From Verrucomicrobiota bacterium (GTDB taxonomy: Bacteria > Verrucomicrobiota > Verrucomicrobiia > Chthoniobacterales > UBA6821), in assembly GCA_008932965.1 (NCBI GenBank), contig WBXG01000032.1, forward strand, positions 1 through 19,326: 19,326 nt of DNA. Direction: 5' to 3'. Under the pieces are notes generated by a model. That model had not been told where the DNA came from. It saw only the letters and a list, made by a program, of their open reading frames with translations, and made no database searches. Below, piece after piece: positions 279 through 16,543 of the stretch (positions within the stretch are counted from its first letter, which is position 1; the number at the start of each line of letters is the position of its first letter). The translations under genes and the position numbers were made by a program.

Positions 279-2624
279 TTATAGAGTTACTTGCTCACAG
301 CAAAAATTTTCACAGCGATAGAGGACTGCTTTTCCCTCTTTAAGTTTCATCCCACTGAGTTCCACCTTGCGTGCTGCTAGCCATTCTTGACCGACATCCC
401 CTTCTGCCAACATGACAATTTGTTCTGGATGAAAACCTTTGCGTGCTTGAGCAAGTAGAAATAATGTGCTTGGCCATGAAAGCTGCCCTGCAATCACCAT
501 CTGGCGTAAAGGAGTGAGTGAATACCAGAGTGCCACGAGTAGTTGAGGTAGAGCTGTAGGCATTGTTTCTAGGATGGAAGCTGAAAGATGAAAAATTGCT
601 AGCGCGCTCTTTTCTGCAATAGGATCATTGAGCATTCTAGAAAAACGAAGATGATTGAGTGCTGCTACAGAATTGGCTGAAGGTTCCGCACCATCATACT
701 CCTCCTTAAGGCGCAGGAGCACGTGAGGATCACCTTTTGCGCTACTAAAATAGCCTCCGTGCTCAGCATCCCAGAAAAGTGCATCCATTTTCTTTTGTAA
801 TATTTTAGCCCACTGTAACCAAACCACATCAAAAGTGGCTTCGTACAAATCAAGCAATCCTTGAATTAAAAAGGCATAATCCTCAGCAAAACCTTGTTCT
901 ATCACTTGCCCGTGACACCAGCTGTGGCGCAGTTCTTGAGAGGAGTTATTATAGAGATGTTTGCGAATAAAAAGAGCCGCACGCACAGCCTGATCCGTAT
1001 ATGCTTGAGAGGCAAATGCCGCTCCAGCACGTGCGTAGGCCGAGATCATCAACCCATTCCAAGCTGTTAATATTTTATCATCCCGTTGAGGACGAGGTCG
1101 TTTTTCTCTGGCTTGAAAAAGTTTTTTTTTAGCAGAGGCAAGTGTCTCTTTGTTGCAATCACTTTGGTTATTATATTCTCCAAACATCAAAATATTTTTA
1201 CCATGAAGCTCTCCATGAGGATCCAACTCATGAGGAACATTCCCCTCCTCGCGTAATTGATAATACTGCTTCATGAGAGAAAACTCTTCCGAGCTAAGAA
1301 GTGTCTCTATTTCCTTCATGGACCAAACATAAAAAGCTCCCTCACTTTTGATACCCATTGTATTGAGGCTATCAGCATCCTCAGCACAGAAAAATCCCCC
1401 CTCGAGCGACGTCATGTCACGTTCCACATAAGATAAAATAGAGTGAACGACCTCACCATACTCGTGAGCACTAAAACTTAACCGGGATATTTCATACTGA
1501 TCCTGAGGAGGAAGCTGCAAAGGCTGATTAGGTAAGGCAGGCGATGAAGGCTGACGACGGCTCTGTGCGTACACACTGCCTGAGGAGGACTTCAAGCTTA
1601 ACTCAGCATCCATCTGGCTTACCGACTTCCCTAGGTGATCAGTATGAAGCACCTGGGTTAACTCACTCTTCCAATGTTTTAAATTAGATAGAGAAGAGGG
1701 AGTCGATGGAACGATCGTCGGGGCAATACAGTTATTTGCTGTTTCATGAGACGTTGAAGAGAGGATTTGATAGGCTTCAAGATAAGCCATGGTAAGCTGT
1801 GCCTGATCGTAGAGCATTTTTTCGAAATGAGGCACCTGCCAGAGGCGATCAACCGAGTAGCGATGAAAGCCTCCCCCTAACTGGTCATGGAGACCACCAG
1901 CAGCCATCTTACGAAGTGTAAACAATGCCATTTTGCGAGCATCCTCTCCTTGCTCATTCTGATGATGATGGGCATAGCGAAATAAAAAAAAGAGTACTGA
2001 AGGTCTTGGAAACTTAGGTACCATACCAAAGCCACCCCAGACTTTATCAAAACTTTTTGAAAATTGTTTGCAGGCACTCTCTAGTGGCATTTCTTTCTTC
2101 TTAGAAAAGAGTGCTGATTTTTTTTTCACGGACTGTTCTAACAATTCCATAGTACGGAGAGCCTCTTCTTCGAGCTGATTTCGATTTTCTTTCCATAATT
2201 GTGCAAGCTGCCGAAGCACTGAGGGAAATCCAATACGACCAGAGATATCGTGAGGAGGAAAATAGGTCCCTCCAAAAAAGGGTTTAAGTTCTGGAGTTAA
2301 CCACACACTCATCGGCCAACCTCCCCCACCTGTGAAGGCTTGTATGTAGCTCATGTAGAGACGATCCACATCGGGACGCTCCTCACGGTCGACTTTGACA
2401 GAAATAAAATGGGCATTGAGAAGGGCTGCAATCTCATGATTTTCGAAAGATTCATGGGCCATCACATGGCACCAGTGACAGGTTGAATAACCAATCGATA
2501 AAAAAATCGGCTTCTGCTCCGTGCGTGCACGAGAGAAGGCTTCATCACCCCAAGGATACCACTCCACGGGATTGGAAGCGTGCTCCTGCAAGTAGGGAGA
2601 GGAGGAGTTTACAAGGTGATTCAT
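279..2624 (-). CDS. Thioredoxin-domain (DUF255 / YyaL, COG1331-type) protein with an (alpha/alpha)6 barrel-like C-terminal part, carrying an in-frame repeat-element insertion
   Basis: N-terminus [55 protein letters not shown] is the hallmark of the family. Downstream motifs are [54 protein letters not shown] and [12 protein letters not shown] place the start at ATG 2624. The track start at 2654 is a TTG that adds 10 non-conserved residues. Confidence 0.9.
1478..1661. mobile_element. Palindromic MITE-like element, copy 1 (176-bp core flanked by TTAA/TTAA), inside the YyaL-like CDS
   Basis: Left end ttaaCCGGGATATTTCATACTGATC (1478-1502). Right end GATCAGTATGAAGCACCTGGGttaa (1637-1661). The interior aligns with copies at 6086, 8507 and 9076. 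It is translated in frame as [14 protein letters not shown]...[13 protein letters not shown]. Confidence 0.9.
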
Positions 2625-6085: not shown

Positions 6086-6270
6086 CTAACACGGATATTT
6101 TATACTGATCGTGACGAGGAAGCCGCGAAGGCTGATGGGGCAAGGCAAGTGATGAAGTCTGACAACGGCTGTATGAGTCCCTACTGCCCGAGGAAGACTT
6201 CGAGCTTGGGCGCAGCATCCATCTGGCTTCCCGGCTTCCGTAGTAGATCAGTATGAAATATGCAGGTTAA
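6086..6270. mobile_element. Palindromic MITE-like element, copy 2 (177-bp core, flanks CTAA/TTAA), intergenic
   Basis: Left end ctaaCACGGATATTTTATACTGATCGTGACGAGGAAGCCGCGAAGGCTGATGG. Right end CCATCTGGCTTCCCGGCTTCCGTAGTAGATCAGTATGAAATATGCAGGttaa. The arms are mutually reverse-complementary. Confidence 0.92.
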
Positions 6271-6344: not shown

Positions 6345-8141
6345 ATGAATTCACCGGCCCTAACTCGATGTGCACAAGAGCATAAGTACTTAAAATGTAC
6401 GTTTTTTTACAACTGTTTCCCGCTTGTTCTAATTATTTTTGCTTTTTTTTACTACGGCTCTTATTACTGCTGTAGCCTCTATCCATCAGGAGAAGGAGGT
6501 GTCGAAGGAGTTACAGCATTACGCTTACTCTCGGGGAAAATCCCTATCATTGATATTGCCCTTAACTACAACCTGCTTTGGTTTTATCCTATTGTCTGGC
6601 TTTTTAAAATGGTGGGCCCTAGCTACACGGCCCTGAGGATCTATTTTTTTACGATCTCCACAATAACAGGATTGCTTAGTTTTTTTATTGTTAAAAAGAC
6701 GACCCATCAAAGCTGGCTTGCCTTGCTAGCTGGTATCTTAGCGCTTCTTCTTCCAGGTCAACTATTCAGAAATTACATGGCTTTTACAGTCCTACTGAAT
6801 ATGTTCCTATTTTTAAAAATATTTCTTCTTCCCTGCCGCAATCTCAAAACGCATCTCTTATGGATGGCCGCCACAGGAGGCGCTTTAGGGGTGACTTTTT
6901 TAATTCGAATCGATCTTGGATTTTTTTTGAGTCTCATATTTTTAGGATCTGTTCTGATGTATCCATGGATTAGAAATGAACAATCAAAAAAGTTTTCATT
7001 TCCAAAACGTTGTTGGCTCTCTCTTGCAGCTCTTTCATTAGGCATCACCGGATTTTTACTACTGCATCTTCCAATATATTTTCATGCAGAGAAAAAAGGC
7101 TTTGTGATTCCTTTTGTCACCCAATATGTGCAATGGCCACGGATGATCGTCAGTCAAGGAACCCATCTCCTCAAAACGATTTTTGAAGATCCAGGATCTT
7201 CTCACCACCTGGCAGCCTATGTCTCTACATCGAGTGCTCCTGCAAATAATGCATCTATAACACAAAGCAACCTTCTGCGTCCTACGTTAGATTCAGCAAC
7301 TATTCGAGAACGCATTACCACACTGAATATCTATCTCCCAATTATTTGTATAGGGCTTCTTCTGCTTTTGACTGCTCTTTTTTTATTCCTTAGTAGAAGA
7401 AAAAAAGAATGTAACTTGAGTCATGGAGCATGGATTTTCTCACTGATGCTGGGGTGCTCCCTCACCCTTTTTCCGCAATATTTTTTCTGGCGTCCCGACA
7501 TGATTCATTTGAGTGAATTCATGGTCCCCATGACAACCACGCTGCTAGTAGCTCTTTATTTCGTATGGATGGTGAAAGAAAAAATAGCACCACTTCTACA
7601 GCCTTTACTCCTAGCTTTTTCAATTTTTGCGATCCTCGATCTCACCCTTTATTTTATCAATGGGTGTCAGTCTCAATCAACCGGCGGAATCGCCATTAGC
7701 CAAGGGAGAACAAAAGAGTTTCTCGGAGCAAACGGAGTATCTGTTAAGCTAGCCCCTCATGAATTTGAAGAAGCCACTGCTATTTCCAAGAGCATCCTTC
7801 AACATTCCCAAAAGGGAGAATATGTCATTTGTTTTCCCTATAATCCCGAAATTAATTTTATGACCGACCGTCCCTCCTATCGTCGGGATCTTTATTGCGA
7901 TGACATGACGGCTTCTAGCAACTTCAATGAAAACGCAATTGCAGAAATTGAACATTATCAACCTGCAGTCATTGTCATCACTGATTGGCCGATCAATGGA
8001 ACAGAGCATTCACGTTTTAGCAATTGGGCTAATACCACCTATCGCTATATTCAAAGCCATTACCAAGCTGATTATGATCATGGAATCATTCACGTTTTTG
8101 TGAACCCCAAAAAAGCAAGTACTCCTCCTAAAAATTTATGA
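6345..8141 (+). CDS. Polytopic inner-membrane protein, probable GT-C superfamily (ArnT/PMT-like) glycosyltransferase with a C-terminal periplasmic domain
   Basis: 598 aa with roughly 12 hydrophobic helices. There is an early loop (SGEGGVEGVTALRLLSGKIPIIDI) where GT39/GT83-type enzymes carry the DE..Y..A..l..G..PY.D motif. A ~150-aa soluble C-terminus follows. The CDS call is confident. The family call is tentative. Confidence 0.75.
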   Translation: MNSPALTRCAQEHKYLKCTFFYNCFPLVLIIFAFFYYGSYYCCSLYPSGEGGVEGVTALRLLSGKIPIIDIALNYNLLWFYPIVWLFKMVGPSYTALRIYFFTISTITGLLSFFIVKKTTHQSWLALLAGILALLLPGQLFRNYMAFTVLLNMFLFLKIFLLPCRNLKTHLLWMAATGGALGVTFLIRIDLGFFLSLIFLGSVLMYPWIRNEQSKKFSFPKRCWLSLAALSLGITGFLLLHLPIYFHAEKKGFVIPFVTQYVQWPRMIVSQGTHLLKTIFEDPGSSHHLAAYVSTSSAPANNASITQSNLLRPTLDSATIRERITTLNIYLPIICIGLLLLLTALFLFLSRRKKECNLSHGAWIFSLMLGCSLTLFPQYFFWRPDMIHLSEFMVPMTTTLLVALYFVWMVKEKIAPLLQPLLLAFSIFAILDLTLYFINGCQSQSTGGIAISQGRTKEFLGANGVSVKLAPHEFEEATAISKSILQHSQKGEYVICFPYNPEINFMTDRPSYRRDLYCDDMTASSNFNENAIAEIEHYQPAVIVITDWPINGTEHSRFSNWANTTYRYIQSHYQADYDHGIIHVFVNPKKASTPPKNL

Positions 8142-9064
8142 AACAGCGTTGGAACCATATCTTTTTTCTTCATGCAAAAATTGCACCAGATTTATTACAA
8201 CCCTACCTCCCTTTCAAATTAGATCTTCTAGATGGAATGGCTATTCTTTCAATCGTTCCTTTTAAAATGGATATGATTCGACTTTGGAATCTTCCTCCAG
8301 CACCCTTCTTCTCACATTTATGGGAAATTAACCTCCGAACTTATGTCAGGGTCGGTGGAAAACCTGGGGTTTATTTTTTTACTCTTGATACTGATAGTGC
8401 TCTGGGTTGTTGGATTGCTAATCACTTCTTTCACCTTCCCTACCGACTTGCAAAAATCAAAGCTGTTGTGAGAAAGGAGCACTTCTATTTTGAGAGTCGA
8501 CGCTCCCTAGCCCGGATATTTCATACTGATCGTGACAAGGAGCTAGCGAAGACTGATGGGTTACCGCCGGCGGCCGGAAGACCGCGGGAGAGACTACCTT
8601 TGGGCAGCCCTGAAAAGGAGAGACGAGTGGGAGCGAGTGAGTCAACGCAGACGAGTATTTTGACACAGGGCTGTATGAGTACACACCGCCCATGTCAAAA
8701 TGGAAGTCTAACGCAATATCCATCTGGCTTCCCGGTCTTCGCAGGTGATCGGCATGAAATATCAGGGCTAGCCTCTTTTAAAACCTCCTTTTGTATTACT
8801 GGAGAAAAAAAGAAAAAAACGATTTTGGATAGATGGACTACAGACCGAGATCGGCTCTTTACTCTCAAACGTGGAGAAATCTACGAAGGGAGAGTGCACC
8901 ACGACTCATGGCCCTTAGAAAAGATAGAGAATCTTATTTTTGAGGATCATTTTTCAACTCAAATTCCCATTAAGTGTCATTTCGACCCTCAAGAATCAAG
9001 CTACGCCCCCTTACTTAATGTCAGTTTCGAAACCTTTAGAAAAACAGGTAATACCATCTCCTAA
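8138..9064 (+). CDS. DUF2071 (B. subtilis YqjF-like, COG3361-type) protein carrying an 87-codon in-frame repeat-element insertion
   Basis: N-terminus WNHIFFLHAKIAPDLLQPYLPFKLDLLDGMAILSIVPFKMDMIRLWNLPPAPFFSHLWEINLRTYVRVGGKPGVYFFTLDTDS...HLPYRLAKI, and C-terminus LDRWTTDRDRLFTL..G.IYEGRVHHDSWPLEKI, both fit the DUF2071 pattern. The start overlaps the upstream stop (ATGA, 8138-8141). Confidence 0.85.
   Translation: MKQRWNHIFFLHAKIAPDLLQPYLPFKLDLLDGMAILSIVPFKMDMIRLWNLPPAPFFSHLWEINLRTYVRVGGKPGVYFFTLDTDSALGCWIANHFFHLPYRLAKIKAVVRKEHFYFESRRSLARIFHTDRDKELAKTDGLPPAAGRPRERLPLGSPEKERRVGASESTQTSILTQGCMSTHRPCQNGSLTQYPSGFPVFAGDRHEISGLASFKTSFCITGEKKKKTILDRWTTDRDRLFTLKRGEIYEGRVHHDSWPLEKIENLIFEDHFSTQIPIKCHFDPQESSYAPLLNVSFETFRKTGNTIS
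8507..8771. mobile_element. Palindromic MITE-like element, copy 3 (257-bp core flanked by CTAG/CTAG), inside the DUF2071 CDS, with a nested 81-bp GC-rich extra segment
   Basis: Left end ctagCCCGGATATTTCATACTGATCGTGACAAGG. Right end CCATCTGGCTTCCCGGTCTTCGCAGGTGATCGGCATGAAATATCAGGGctag. The interior aligns with copy 4 except for extra sequence at about 8564-8647. Confidence 0.92.
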
Positions 9065-9075
9065 AAATATCCGGG

Positions 9076-9259
9076 TTAACACGGATGTTTCATACTGATC
9101 GTGACGAGGAGGCCGCGAAGGCTTATGGGGTAAGACAGGCGAGCATTTTGATGCAGGGCTGTATGTCTACATACTGCCCAAATCAAAATGTGAGTCTAAC
9201 GCAGCATCCATCTGACTTCCCGGCTTTCGTAGTAGATAAGTATGAAACATACGGGTTAA
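9076..9259. mobile_element. Palindromic MITE-like element, copy 4 (176-bp core flanked by TTAA/TTAA), intergenic, preceded by an orphan right end
   Basis: Left end ttaaCACGGATGTTTCATACTGATCGTGACGAGGAGGCCGCGAAGGCTTATGG. Right end CCATCTGACTTCCCGGCTTTCGTAGTAGATAAGTATGAAACATACGGGttaa. The palindrome centre is gtatgt-ct-acatac at 9161-9174. Immediately 5' (9066-9079), aaatatccgggttaa is a right-end fragment sharing the same TTAA. Confidence 0.92.
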
Positions 9260-11718: not shown

Positions 11719-12249
11719 ATGGCTGCTCCTTCATCTGTTAGTGGCAATAACAGTCCAACAAGGCCTGTAACTCCTATACTCTCGGAAAATTACGACGGTA
11801 AGAATCCTCTCTCAACACAAACAAGTGGAAATGCAATTACAGCAAAAAAAAGCAGCCGTCCTAATTACACTAAAGCAAATACAAGCATTCAAAATAAAAA
11901 CTCTAATGCTGCTGCCATCCTTGCTTCGAGAAAACATCTCCCTAAAAGTCAAAATGGATCAATGCCATTAAGGCCCGATCAACATCCTGGTACCATTCCT
12001 CTTTTTAATCCCAATTCTACTCAAGGGAGTGTTAATGATAGACAAGTCAAAAATGCTAAAGCGAGCAGCAATCCAAGTACACAAGGTTATAATCGCTCAG
12101 CAAATTTTCATTTGCTTGTAGCAGGTTTTAACTACAACTTGCAACGGCAGAGCAGGGCTTTTGGGCAGCAAGAAAAAAAACAAGTCCAAACATTAGAGAA
12201 TAATAATTCGGAGAATAATACTAAGGTTAACCCGGATATTTCATACTGA
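11719..12249 (+). CDS. Hypothetical low-complexity N/S/Q/P/K-rich protein (176 aa), coding status uncertain
   Basis: The ORF has no hydrophobic core or signal peptide. Its last 7 codons and stop (KVNPDISY*) are read from the left terminus of a mini-element. Confidence 0.35.
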   Translation: MAAPSSVSGNNSPTRPVTPILSENYDGKNPLSTQTSGNAITAKKSSRPNYTKANTSIQNKNSNAAAILASRKHLPKSQNGSMPLRPDQHPGTIPLFNPNSTQGSVNDRQVKNAKASSNPSTQGYNRSANFHLLVAGFNYNLQRQSRAFGQQEKKQVQTLENNNSENNTKVNPDISY

Positions 12250-12284
12250 AGCGTCATGATTCATCATGAAAAATCTAGATTTAA
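12227..12284. mobile_element. Mini (internally deleted) palindromic element, copy 5
   Basis: The left end ttaaCCCGGATATTTCATACTGA is identical over 23 nt to copy 7. A degenerate right end gattCATCATGAAAAATCTAGAttaa follows. It lies between two convergent stop codons (TGA 12247-12249; tta 12281-12283 = asnB stop). Confidence 0.6.
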
Positions 12285-14149
12285 GAGTTTTGAATTCTCG
12301 CTAACACATATTGAGCCCAAAGAAAAAGCCGTTCGTCACTTCGGCCGCACTGATGTTCCTGTAGTGAGTGATAAAAAAACTTCTTTCCTATTGGTGAAAC
12401 GGGCTCATTAGGAGTGATAGCACCGCTTTGAAACCATCCTCCAATAGGCATTCCAAAGCCTTTTTTCTTTCGATAGATAATGTTGTTAGGAAGAAACGGC
12501 TCGAGTGCTTTTTTCAAGATCCATTTAGTCACACCCCCTCGTAACTTTACCGTATGAGGAAGTCGTCGAGCAAAGTTCACAAGCTCAATATCTAAAAATG
12601 GAGATCGCACCTCCAATGAATGAAGCATACTAACACGATCAATCTTAGCTAAAATATCATCTTGCAAGTAAAGAGATGTAAAAAAATGAAGAGCACGATC
12701 CACTAAACTAGCAGAAGCCCCAGGGCGCTCCCAGGCTTCAATTGCCTCACTATAAATTTCCTCAGGATTATTTTTATCTCCAAAAAAAGAGTCAATTTCT
12801 TGAATATTGAGAGGCCCCATCCAAACGGGCATCCAGAGAGGTTGAGGAAAGAAAAGCCCGCGCAGTGTTCGTTTGATTTTAAAATCAAGGCTGATATTGC
12901 GGTGCGATACGGGAAGATGGGCTGCAAGAAAAGAAAGTGCAGGATGCAATACCTTTGGAACCATTCTAGAATAGAGCTCTGCAGCATGGAGTGCTTTCAA
13001 TGGATCATATCCAGCAAAGAGCTCATCCCCGCCATCGCCACCCAATGCAACGGTAACATGGTCTCTTGCAAACCCAGAAAGTAACCATGTGGGAAGCAAG
13101 GAGCTATCAGCAATTGGTTCATCCAATTGACTCAAGAGTTCTGGTAAAAGATGAACAGCTCGATGAAGATCTAGAATCTCTTCGTGATGAGTAGAACCGA
13201 GATGCAAGGCCATCTGTTGCGCAAAAGGAAGTTCATCAAAAGAAGGATCAGTAAAACCAATGCTAAAAGTTTGAAGCTCTCGTGCCGGAAGATAGCGTGA
13301 AGCCACAGCCGCTATTGCTGAAGAATCGATCCCCCCACTCAAAAAAATTCCAATGGGGACATCCGAGATAAGACGCCGCTTTACTGCTCGATCCAGGAGC
13401 TCCATGAGTTCCTCCGACCATAATTTTCCCCCATCAGCTGGCAGGTCAGGTTGGGATGGCTCTAATCGATATTCCCAATAACGCTGAACTTGAAATGTTT
13501 TATCTTGAAGATCTAGTTTTCCAAAATGGCCTCCAGGGAGTTTATAAATCCCCTCAATCAAAGAATGAGGAGCGGGAATATATCCATAAGCAAAATATTT
13601 TTTGAGTGCTATGGTGGACTCATTTCTAGGGGCTTTGGGATGTTGCATTAAGGCTTTTAGCTCCGATGCAAAAGCAAAAAGATGACCCTCCTGATCCTGA
13701 TGCTGAAAATAGTAGAGTGGCTTCTTACCAAAACGATCTCGTGCAATAAAAATAGTATTCTTTCTTCGATCCTCAATTACAAAGGCCCACATTCCATTGA
13801 GTTTGTCTAGCATCCCTTCACCCCATTCTCGGTAGCCGTGAAGTAGGACTTCGGTATCCGAGTGGTCAGTCTGAAATTGATATCCTTTGGTAATAAGCTC
13901 TGCACGTAGTTCTTTATGATTGTAAATTTCACCATTAAAAATAATCACTAGAGCTCCATCAACTGTTGCCATTGGTTGAATGCCATCACCCAGATCTATA
14001 ATCGAAAGACGTCGATGACCTAAGTAGATCCTTCTTTTTTCTTCAATAAAAAAACCCTCTTGATCAGGACCCCGATGCACAAGGGCTCGTGTCATTTTTT
14101 CAATTACCTCACGATCTCCAGAGCCAATAAAACCAGCTATACCGCACAT
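12281..14149 (-). CDS. asnB: Asparagine synthase (glutamine-hydrolysing) family amidotransferase, AsnB-type
   Basis: MCGIAGFIG N-terminal nucleophile Cys, HRGPD, RRLSIIDL..G.QPM, and the PP-loop SGGIDSS. 622 aa. Confidence 0.9.
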   Translation of the reverse strand: MCGIAGFIGSGDREVIEKMTRALVHRGPDQEGFFIEEKRRIYLGHRRLSIIDLGDGIQPMATVDGALVIIFNGEIYNHKELRAELITKGYQFQTDHSDTEVLLHGYREWGEGMLDKLNGMWAFVIEDRRKNTIFIARDRFGKKPLYYFQHQDQEGHLFAFASELKALMQHPKAPRNESTIALKKYFAYGYIPAPHSLIEGIYKLPGGHFGKLDLQDKTFQVQRYWEYRLEPSQPDLPADGGKLWSEELMELLDRAVKRRLISDVPIGIFLSGGIDSSAIAAVASRYLPARELQTFSIGFTDPSFDELPFAQQMALHLGSTHHEEILDLHRAVHLLPELLSQLDEPIADSSLLPTWLLSGFARDHVTVALGGDGGDELFAGYDPLKALHAAELYSRMVPKVLHPALSFLAAHLPVSHRNISLDFKIKRTLRGLFFPQPLWMPVWMGPLNIQEIDSFFGDKNNPEEIYSEAIEAWERPGASASLVDRALHFFTSLYLQDDILAKIDRVSMLHSLEVRSPFLDIELVNFARRLPHTVKLRGGVTKWILKKALEPFLPNNIIYRKKKGFGMPIGGWFQSGAITPNEPVSPIGKKFFYHSLQEHQCGRSDERLFLWAQYVLARIQNS

Positions 14150-14329
14150 GAGAGAGGAGTGTAGGCAATAAGGTATACTTTATCCTGATTCGCAGTGAGG
14201 CATGTCAAAGCCTGATGCAGATAGCAAAAGCCTTTTAAAATATCTGTTCGATATGCAAGGTGATGAATCATTCAAGGAGTATTAAAAAAAAAATCTTTTA
14301 GGCCAAGCAGATTAGAATGATTGAGAATG

Positions 14330-14399
14330 CTAGCCTGGAGATTTCATGGTGAATCTATTACGGCTTCTGCAAGTGATGAAGATGAAATATTCGGGCTAA
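14330..14399. mobile_element. Mini (internally deleted) palindromic element, copy 6 (flanks CTAG/CTAA)
   Basis: ctagCCTGGAGATTTCATGGTGAATC ... CGGCTTCTGCAAGTGATGAAGATGAAATATTCGGGctaa. The right half aligns with the right arm of full copies (cggcttccgtagtagatcagtatgaaatat). It lies in the 270-bp gap between the sulfotransferase stop and the asnB start. Confidence 0.75.
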
Positions 14400-15353: not shown

Positions 15354-16322
15354 TTATCTACTCATCTGTGAAGGAGCTTGCTGAATCACATTGCATGTTC
15401 TTTTAACAAGATAGATTGATTTACCCTGTGACTCATAAAAGGTGCGCGTGATCATCTCTGCAAGGAGCCCCATGAGAAAGCTCATGACTCCCATCAAAAA
15501 TGTAAAGACAGCCATAAGTGGGAGTGGTGTGGTGATAAGTGGCTTTCTCATCCAAATCAAAAGAGCGAGTGCCCAACAGGCAAATCCCAAGCTCCCTGCT
15601 AAACTAATGAGACCACAAGCACCAAAGACATACATTGGCTTTTGGGCATGCCGATCGAGAAATTTAACAACCATTAAATCGAGAATAACTTTGAGTACAC
15701 GTTCAAGGCCATACTTAGAATGGCCCGTAGTGCGGGCAAAATGATTGACTGGCAACTCTGTAATGCGGGCTCCATGCCATTTGGTATAGATGGGAAGGAA
15801 GCGGTGCATTTCACCGTAAAGCCTCACCCCTTCAATCACATCACGACGATAAGCCTTGAGTGAACATCCAAAGTCATGCAAGCGCACTCCAGAAATCGCA
15901 GAAATCAATTTATTAGCCATCATGCTAGGAATATTTCTTTGCAGTGCATTATCTTGTCGATCCCGACGCCAGCCAGAACAGACATCATAGCCCTCATCTA
16001 GCTTGAGCAACATTCTGGGGATATCCTCGGGATCATTCTGGTAGTCCCCATCCATCGGAATAATGATCTCTCCTGAGGCATAATCAAAGCCTGCCATCAT
16101 GGCTGCCGTTTGACCAAAGTTACGCCGAAAGTGGACAACTTTGGCCACAGGATAATGGAGGGCAAGGTCCTCAAGAATCTCTCCACTTTGGTCGGTACTT
16201 CCATCATTAACAAAAATCACTTCATACTCTTTTCCAAAACAATCCATGACTTCACGGATTTTAGTAAAGAGCGGGATGATGGCCCCTTGTTCATTGTAGA
16301 TGGGAATGGTAATGGAAATCAT
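15354..16322 (-). CDS. GT2 polyprenyl-phosphate sugar synthase (GtrB / ArnC / DPM1-like) with two C-terminal TM helices
   Basis: MISITIPIYNEQG...EVIFVNDGSTDQS...RNFGQTAAMMAGFDYASGEIIIPMDGDYQNDPEDIP...GWRRDRQD...ANKLI, plus two C-terminal hydrophobic helices. The start is set at ATG 16322. The track start at 16415 is a TTG inside the repeat element. Confidence 0.9.
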   Translation of the reverse strand: MISITIPIYNEQGAIIPLFTKIREVMDCFGKEYEVIFVNDGSTDQSGEILEDLALHYPVAKVVHFRRNFGQTAAMMAGFDYASGEIIIPMDGDYQNDPEDIPRMLLKLDEGYDVCSGWRRDRQDNALQRNIPSMMANKLISAISGVRLHDFGCSLKAYRRDVIEGVRLYGEMHRFLPIYTKWHGARITELPVNHFARTTGHSKYGLERVLKVILDLMVVKFLDRHAQKPMYVFGACGLISLAGSLGFACWALALLIWMRKPLITTPLPLMAVFTFLMGVMSFLMGLLAEMITRTFYESQGKSIYLVKRTCNVIQQAPSQMSR

Positions 16323-16372
16323 GGTAACAGCTGGGTAAGGAGTAATGGTTAATCTATAACGAGTAAAGAATT

Positions 16373-16543
16373 TTAACCCGGATATTTCATACTGATCGTG
16401 ACGAGGAGGCCGCAAATACTGATGGATACTGCGTCAGGATTCGTGGCGCCTCGCGAAGAACCAGTATGAAATATGCGGGCTAGCGCAGCAGCCATCAACC
16501 TTCCCGACCTAAGCAGGTGATTGCCATGAACTATTCATGCTAG
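16373..16543. mobile_element. Composite palindromic element, copy 7: a 111-bp short form (16373-16483, TTAA/CTAG) plus an extra right arm (16484-16543, ending CTAG)
   Basis: ttaaCCCGGATATTTCATACTGATCGTGACGAGGAGGCCGC ... GGCGCCTCGCGAAGAACCAGTATGAAATATGCGGGctag. Then gcagcagccatcaaccttcccgacctaagcaggtgattgccatgaactattcatgctag aligns with the right arm of full copies. Confidence 0.85.

Follow-up and report, generated by a model that had tools for sequence, protein, structure and literature searches.

How a conserved bacterial gene can hold a mobile palindromic repeat in the middle of its coding sequence and still read as a single open reading frame (ORF) is the question raised by a 19,326-nucleotide contig of a freshwater Verrucomicrobiota bacterium of the order Chthoniobacterales (WBXG01000032.1 of assembly GCA_008932965.1), which at this full length is termed the window below. 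The yyaL/DUF255 gene of the window carries two inserts: a copy, termed c1, of a short repeat designated family A, and beside it an older and diverged copy of a second repeat, family B. A first-pass annotation, made from the sequence alone, had described c1 as a selfish palindrome tolerated as a peptide insert in a housekeeping protein. The explanation that we prefer, with a probability of roughly 0.85, is that a MITE (miniature inverted-repeat transposable element) inserted in frame in yyaL, that it is translated as a disordered loop of a protein that remains functional, and that the inserted peptide is neutral filler. The observation behind the first-pass annotation is confirmed, and its interpretation is supported and more general than could be seen from the window.

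The minus-strand ORF of yyaL (279-2624) runs open across c1, with sequence typical of the protein family on both sides (Table 1). As had been described, down to the coordinates, the 176-nt core and one TTAA make a net gain of 180 nt, or 60 codons, without a stop; the peptide that had been quoted for these 60 codons is right in its sequence but not in its length, since it is the 62-residue read-through product that spans both TTAA copies. That the element is a mobile palindromic repeat is borne out by its target-site duplication and by its absence from an orthologue. The closest homologue lacking the 60-codon block is a protein of 721 aa (P0002) from the Chthoniobacterales metagenome-assembled genome (MAG) Tobar2m-G38 (locus L001), whose yyaL gene has ~81% nucleotide identity to that of the window. 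Alignment with this orthologue, a check that the first-pass annotation had proposed, defines the insertion point by an exact empty site: L001 reads AACGAG TTCA GTTTCAGT, and the window reads AGTGAG TTAA, then the 176 nt, then TTAA GTTTTAGT. c1 thus accounts for a clean gain of 180 nt, with 4 bp of the target duplicated. The same insert occupies the same site in a Logan assembly from another sample (L004, from ERR4869735), which is 99.2% identical to the window over 3.87 kb, and the sequence cluster of the window protein (P0001) has 8 member sequences. c1 shares 75.5% identity with the family consensus and 82.6% with the nearest subfamily consensus; its hairpin has decayed to -63 kcal/mol, compared with -106 kcal/mol for the family-A consensus, and together with its counterpart in L004 it forms the weakest hairpins among all genic copies. 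Because it is 17-25% diverged from its family and has the weakest genic hairpin, the insertion appears to be old.

The repeat in yyaL is not a chance match, because the window holds five more copies or fragments of family A and more than 130 copies were recovered from relatives and metagenomes (134 full-length copies, 94 in a genome set and 40 in a metagenome set). A scan of one genome per species detected the family-A terminal inverted repeat (TIR) in more than 94 genome stretches, almost all from freshwater Chthoniobacterales ("Spartobacteria") MAGs, among them Kiruna_bin-02438, Tobar2m-G38, Deming_bin.170, SMAG_U8253 and a MAG from Lac Pavin. A metagenome scan added 84 further stretches, and the TIR pattern had no matches among viral contigs. 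Out of 1.84e9 cluster representatives, an exhaustive profile search recovered the family-A peptide from 229, for the most part short spurious ORFs, a number that indicates an apparently narrow clade of carriers; a word-indexed peptide search returned short spurious ORFs only and so gave no useful census of host proteins.

The TIRs are ~25 nt long (CCCGGATATTTCATACTGATC...; TTAACCCGGATATTTCATACTGATC) and 80-95% complementary within and between copies, and the element begins with CCC and ends with GGG beside TTAA. In the genome set, 67 of the 93 full-length copies with usable flanks measure exactly 184 nt with both flanks included, and identical YTAR 4-mers lie on both sides of 69 of the 93 (TTAA/TTAA 45, CTAG/CTAG 16, TTAG/TTAG 7, CTAA/CTAA 1). 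Because the non-palindromic flank pairs are direct (eight cases, TTAG 7 and CTAA 1) and never mirrored (none), the duplication is the 4-bp YTAR and not TA; an IS630-like duplication of TA within NTAN was rejected on this count. The consensus is an imperfect whole-length palindrome that folds into a single hairpin of -105.9 kcal/mol (z = -11.5), and its G+C content is 50.5%, compared with 42.3% for the window. Read in frame 0 (TTA ACC ...), it is stop-free in either orientation and both ways starts with LTRIFHTD and ends with DQYEISGL. Among the 67 copies of 184 nt, frame 0 is stop-free in 46 in one orientation and in 51 in the other, and every other frame is stop-free in none. This only open frame specifies a low-complexity peptide of 61 aa, with no coding capacity for a transposase. 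By its small size, TIRs, target-site duplication, dispersed copies and presence or absence among relatives, family A is a MITE, for which no cognate insertion sequence (IS) turned up in the loci searched.

In-frame residence is not particular to yyaL. When a copy is counted as genic if it is read through by an ORF that extends at least 150 nt on both sides, genic copies account for 21 of the 94 full-length family-A copies in the genome set and 17 of the 40 in the independent metagenome set (38/134, 28%), and all 38 are in frame 0. Relative to the consensus, which was oriented by the plus-strand reading of c1, c2 and c4 in the window, the host ORF reads 17 of them in the same and 21 in the opposite direction. 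The restriction to one frame arises because in phase 3 the TTAA or CTAG is itself a stop and in phase 2 stops are met inside the element; as only phase-1 insertions leave an intact protein, selection can keep only those. Ten hosts are confirmed by Pfam, namely GlnD, MurD, Dxr, OMP decarboxylase (PyrF), prephenate dehydratase, type I dehydroquinase (DHquinase I), the RNase P protein, LMW-PTP, a BPD_transp_2 permease and a PMT-type glycosyltransferase. MurD (L079, 2375-4273) contains one A and two B copies in frame, and the prephenate dehydratase PheA (L074, 6638-7507) two tandem A copies in frame. Several ORFs of 900-1200 aa without a recognisable domain also host multiple copies (in L082, L090, L019 and L092). 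Hairpins of genic copies are not weaker than those of intergenic copies (median -93 vs -91.5 kcal/mol, p = 0.38), and so hairpins inside genes are not, in general, selected against. With 28% of full-length copies in frame in long ORFs and ten recognisable hosts, the likeness to the Rickettsia palindromic elements (RPEs) that had been drawn from c1 alone is well founded.

In YyaL the inserts occupy an interval that is short in nearly all relatives. The protein, of the SSP411/SPATA20-like kind, consists of an N-terminal thioredoxin-like DUF255/Thioredox_DsbH domain with a CHWCH motif, followed by an (alpha/alpha)6-barrel; it matches Pfam PF03190 (E=1e-75, 253.7 bits), C49-H-W-C52-H is invariant across 104 homologues, and the ATG start is consistent with the MNHL... 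N-terminus of all homologues. Window YyaL exceeds the uninserted relative P0003 (685 aa) by 96 aa, in agreement with the excess of ~95 aa that the first-pass annotation had given. The first-pass annotation was also right that the interval is short in relatives, although not in its figure of 15-20 residues: between ...AYQ and Y(A/G)xVV there are 6 residues in 98 of the 104 homologues and 102 in the window, and the distance between the motifs that it had quoted is ~13. An ancestral domain, which would appear as a homologous ~95-aa segment in repeat-free orthologues, is at odds with these 98 six-residue loops. The solved Brucella homologue (PDB 7TKV) aligns with the window protein in two blocks (query residues 2-278 and 397-653) that skip residues 279-396, and it bridges the insert interval with 22 residues. 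A first AlphaFold2 run with 16 sequences was too weak, with a predicted local distance difference test score (pLDDT) of 64; a rerun with 104 sequences reached a pLDDT of 79.2 and a predicted template-modelling (TM) score, pTM, of 0.85. In this model residues 293-381 have pLDDT <50 and lie between confident helices 271-294 and 386-404, and for the remainder, superposed on 7TKV, the target-normalised TM-score is 0.82-0.85; the AGE/cellobiose-2-epimerase and GH76 barrels are structural matches at a greater distance. The model places both inserts, as the first-pass annotation had suspected for c1, in a low-confidence loop between two barrel helices, where they would be compatible with the host fold, a compatibility checked for yyaL alone among the host genes.

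The same loop holds inserts in four other lineages, among them copies of family B. Some 34 codons beside c1, rich in serine, threonine and proline (S/T/P), had been taken in the first-pass annotation for an older decayed insertion; they are one, a diverged copy of MITE family B, with an extent of 36 codons instead of 34. The copy is common to the window and L001/P0002, at 68.5% nucleotide identity, and aligns to the B core TCTACTG..GCGAA..GTCGCGCCGGTGCTCG..CATCGAGTA. Family B exists in forms of 142 nt and ~100-108 nt with inverted termini AACCTRTYTTCA...TGAARAYAGGTT, and an alignment of B copies did not permit its target-site duplication or exact ends to be defined. The TTAA target of c1 runs from the end of B (..GAGTT) into host sequence (AA..). 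In the same yyaL loop, P0004 (L005, 10859-11000) has a longer related insert, NLSSHSTEAANGCVAPVL..., and P0010 has what peptide similarity marks as a B copy in reverse orientation. B copies are found at two other yyaL sites (L006, 1122-1221; L007, 4236-4377), with a B-type peptide after EDADS in P0005 and another at a third yyaL site in P0009. Family B is in frame in another Mur ligase besides its two copies in MurD, and in reverse orientation in further ORFs. The yyaL gene has thus been hit independently by family B at three positions in different lineages, and the loop between AYQ and YxxVV is a repeatedly used permissive site, occupied by B forward, B reverse or A plus B according to lineage.

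We propose that the non-autonomous family-A MITE, of 176 bp, inserted in yyaL at a TTAA in the codon phase TTA-A, by cut-and-paste or copy-in, and that its insertion point was exactly the edge of the older B insertion. The gene stays open because the element and one TTAA make 180 nt and because this phase is stop-free in either orientation. The yyaL mRNA would then be translated straight through, with the 60 residues of A, and 36 more from B, forming a disordered surface loop between helices of the (alpha/alpha)6-barrel. Selection would purge elements that insert in another phase or where the structure cannot accommodate them, and only the in-frame, loop-sited kind would persist.

The state of the host gene bears on the first alternative, in which one or both inserts abolish folding or activity, so that at the protein level the gene is dead and its ORF is open only because too little time has elapsed. 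This outcome, which the first-pass annotation had allowed for, is unlikely. Against L001, the ratio of non-synonymous to synonymous substitution rates (dN/dS) is 0.11 for the host codons and 0.64 for the B insert. Between the two insert-bearing genomes, the window and L004, there are 8 changes in 2055 nt of host sequence and 8 in 291 nt of inserts (Fisher p = 2.7e-4), such that the host evolves ~7 times more slowly. The 781 codons are open in spite of the divergence of c1, and in a neutral simulation an ORF of this length was open in 0.3% of runs at 5% divergence. The window protein also retains CHWCH and all columns invariant in the 104 homologues (by construction), and its insert lies between helices in a loop that tolerates inserts in the four other lineages. 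For a dead gene it can be said that the changes in the host part between the window and L004 (3 synonymous, 5 non-synonymous) are indistinguishable from neutrality and that yyaL may be dispensable. On the substitution patterns, the host part appears to be under purifying selection and the inserts seem to evolve nearly neutrally; the favoured interpretation, from these patterns and the structural model, is that YyaL is probably a functional protein with a disordered, neutrally drifting loop.

A second alternative, which we consider somewhat less probable than a dead gene, is that the peptide is no neutral filler and now serves, by exaptation, as a functional module such as an interaction or regulatory loop. 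The end peptides LTRIFHTD and DQYEISGL do recur in dozens of proteins, and insertions can outlast species splits, as in the DUF2071 gene described below. The conserved ends are, however, explained by the TIRs at the DNA level, and the inserts have dN/dS values of 0.64-0.88, low pLDDT and no stable fold. Moreover, both orientations are tolerated though their peptides differ, and intergenic copies carry the same "ORF".

Very improbable, and a shade more so than exaptation, is that the palindrome is removed or skipped after transcription, whether by RNase excision and religation, by intron-like splicing or by translational bypass, and that the protein lacks the 60 residues. Consensus copies do form a whole-element hairpin of -90 to -106 kcal/mol, an obvious substrate for RNA processing or ribosome stalling. 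Removal would leave nothing to keep the element stop-free, of 3n length and in one phase, and yet all 38 of the detected read-through copies are in the open frame, and in old genic copies the frame is still open, with peptides that drift neutrally. At gathering thresholds Rfam matched nothing in the window; the insert is thus not accounted for by an intron, a ribozyme or a known RNA, and c1 itself has lost much of its hairpin. We know of no bacterial precedent for the excision of such a palindrome from mRNA. Finally, a metagenome assembly artefact, with the repeat collapsed or chimerically joined, would be conceivable for a source that is probably a MAG or metagenome, in which repeats are error-prone, but its likelihood is negligible given the exact in-frame junctions with their target-site duplication, the 8 members of the P0001 cluster, and the independent assembly of ERR4869735, which has the same insert in the same place and, across the two inserts, 8 differences private to it.

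Several points nevertheless weigh against a neutral, translated loop in a functional YyaL. The sole argument for translation through the element is the conservation of the frame, and the hairpins that fresh family-A copies form, of -90 to -105 kcal/mol, would come to lie within mRNAs. The eight host changes between the window and L004 are too few for a post-insertion dN/dS, and the higher substitution density in the inserts could in part reflect assembly noise across copies or gene conversion. The age argued for c1 assumes that its sequence was close to the subfamily consensus at insertion. No cognate transposase was found between TIR pairs 400-4000 bp apart in ~0.71 Mb of genome and ~0.77 Mb of metagenome loci, where the candidate pairs enclose ordinary genes (AsnB at window positions 12232-14394, a large repeat-hosting ORF, and YidC-like, Nth-like and PriA-like ORFs), and an all-against-all megablast of the fetched loci detected no IS-sized repeats; the absent IS partner is weak evidence, because MAGs often lose IS copies.

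Elsewhere in the window, of which family-A sequence makes up ~1 kb of 19.3 kb (5%), copy c3 adds a net 87 codons to a DUF2071 gene and splits the Pfam domain into two stretches. The orthologue in L001 (Tobar2m) has an A copy at the same codon, and dN/dS is 0.12 for the host and 0.875 for the A insert. The dS of this insert is lower than that of its host (0.31 and 0.78), which hints at gene conversion between copies or at independent insertions at one site. The ORF that ends in a solo family-A terminus had no match in Pfam. The listed TTG start of the GT2 glycosyltransferase ORF lies inside the composite copies, and the real start is probably downstream of the element. Among NCBI MAGs, intergenic family-A copies are annotated as stand-alone "hypothetical proteins" of 45-107 aa (P0121-P0182), calls that arise because the element is stop-free.

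Around yyaL, the gene order ruvB-yyaL-ffh-rpsP is common to the window and the Tobar2m-G38 MAG. Three to four TGAGTAA heptamers (TTACTCA on the coding strand) stand at 2633-2660, directly 5' of the yyaL start codon, and an inverted partner of the run lies ~130 nt off, at 2785-2808, at the end of ruvB. The gene adjoining yyaL in the relative L005 (8339-9967) has a weak Pfam match to a eukaryote-like domain, ubiquitin C-terminal hydrolase (UCH); taken with the load of repeats, this neighbour raises the possibility that the clade lives in association with a host.

Table 1. Features of the window that bear on the yyaL inserts and on family A
Feature	Position	Strand	Description	Basis
yyaL/DUF255 (COG1331) gene	279-2624	minus	781 aa; hosts both inserts	ORF, translation, Pfam
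Family-A MITE core, copy c1	1482-1657	read on minus	176 nt; termini CCGGGATATTTCATACTGATC ... GATCAGTATGAAGCACCTGGG	TIRs, repeat family
TTAA target-site duplication, gene's 3' side	1478-1481		codons TTA AGT = L S	
TTAA target-site duplication, gene's 5' side	1658-1661		codons TTA ACC = L T	
Older diverged short-form family-B copy	1660-1767 (boundaries approximate)	minus	108 nt; 36 S/T/P-rich codons	
Family-A copy c2	6086-6270		intergenic	repeat family
Family-A copy c3	8507-8771		265 nt with its CTAG flanks counted in; contains an extra internal segment of 81 nt; in frame in the DUF2071 gene 8138-9064 (+)	
Family-A copy c4	9076-9259		intergenic; 92% identical to consensus	
Solo family-A terminus	12226-12249		supplies the last seven codons and stop (...NPDISY*) of ORF 11719-12249	
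Truncated/composite family-A copies (TTAA...CTAG...CTAG)	16373-16543		just upstream of the GT2 glycosyltransferase gene 15354-16415	

Among known systems, the closest in behaviour are the RPEs (RPE-1 and its kin; Ogata et al., Science 2000 and Genome Res 2002, as reviewed in PMC10969869). Whereas those elements belong to an obligate intracellular alphaproteobacterium, family A resides in Verrucomicrobiota of the Chthoniobacterales, recovered from freshwater metagenomes, and it has ~25-bp TIRs, a 4-bp YTAR/TTAA duplication and an empty site that can be demonstrated. As far as is known, the genic RPE copies all have the same orientation and frame; family A is stop-free in the same phase in both orientations, and both are found in genes. 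The two have in common that they are short (~150-180 bp), selfish, multi-copy palindromes over their whole length, with several families per genome and a large proportion of the copies set in frame into unrelated housekeeping genes, where the extra peptide is predicted to be compatible with the fold. RPEs themselves measure ~150 bp and comprise several families, and about half of their copies are in frame in unrelated genes in a structure-compatible manner (PMC10969869). Family A is best regarded as a probable analogue of the RPEs and not an RPE by descent, likened to them by behaviour and not by sequence comparison, in which no similarity would be expected.

With prokaryotic MITEs in general, family A shares its non-autonomous nature, TIRs with a target-site duplication, multiple copies and the capacity to extend or fuse ORFs. 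Occasional in-frame cases are known for ERIC/RU, for Coxiella QMITE1/2 and for Anabaena MITEs (PMC2759123, PMC5896051, PMC10969869), with sporadic examples in Coxiella and in enterobacteria. In generic MITEs, genic in-frame copies are sporadic and mostly sit at gene ends or in hypothetical ORFs, whereas 28% of family-A copies are inside long ORFs, with ten Pfam-confirmed conserved hosts and with two or three copies in single genes. The IS5 group and IS1380/piggyBac-like families, the latter with CC... termini, duplicate 4-bp YTAR/TTAA sites. Family A resembles them in its YTAR duplication (TTAA > CTAG > TTAG) and resembles piggyBac-type elements in its CCC/GGG ends beside TTAA, a likeness that serves as a lead only; no transposase with matching TIRs was found in the loci searched.

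Protein-coding palindromic repeats have so far been treated as a peculiarity of Rickettsia, and full-text searches of the literature returned no description of elements of this kind from Chthoniobacterales or Spartobacteria. A 2024 review of MITEs singles out RPEs for an unusually high rate of insertion in frame and raises the speculation that MITEs may shape protein evolution in a similar way elsewhere (PMC10969869). The elements described here add a second lineage, unrelated to Rickettsia, whose mechanistic signature is cleaner (TIRs, a duplicated TTAA and empty sites) and in which there are two families, recurrent gene hits and a large genic share. They provide a natural experiment that asks in which of their loops conserved enzymes can accept disordered inserts of 35-90 residues. 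They are also a warning for annotation, in that intergenic copies enter databases as hypothetical proteins, whereas copies inside genes lead to overlong proteins and disrupted domain models in MAGs.

The elements further provide a test case for whether selfish elements evolve "coding compatibility". A palindrome of such composition has a chance of ~9% of an open frame 0, and the 3n length contributes an extra factor of one third; the combination is suggestive of adaptation to coding sequence and is not proof of it. We tentatively entertain, at somewhat less than even odds, that MITE families A and B are adapted to life inside coding sequence and are not mere survivors there. The 3n net length, the TTAA/CTAG phase matched to the single stop-free frame and the openness in both orientations would then have given the elements a larger niche in gene-dense genomes. 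If this is true, the families would provide a steady supply of disordered loops to essential enzymes, and they would represent an independent re-invention, in a distant phylum and possibly in free-living bacteria, of the "protein-coding palindrome" strategy of Rickettsia.

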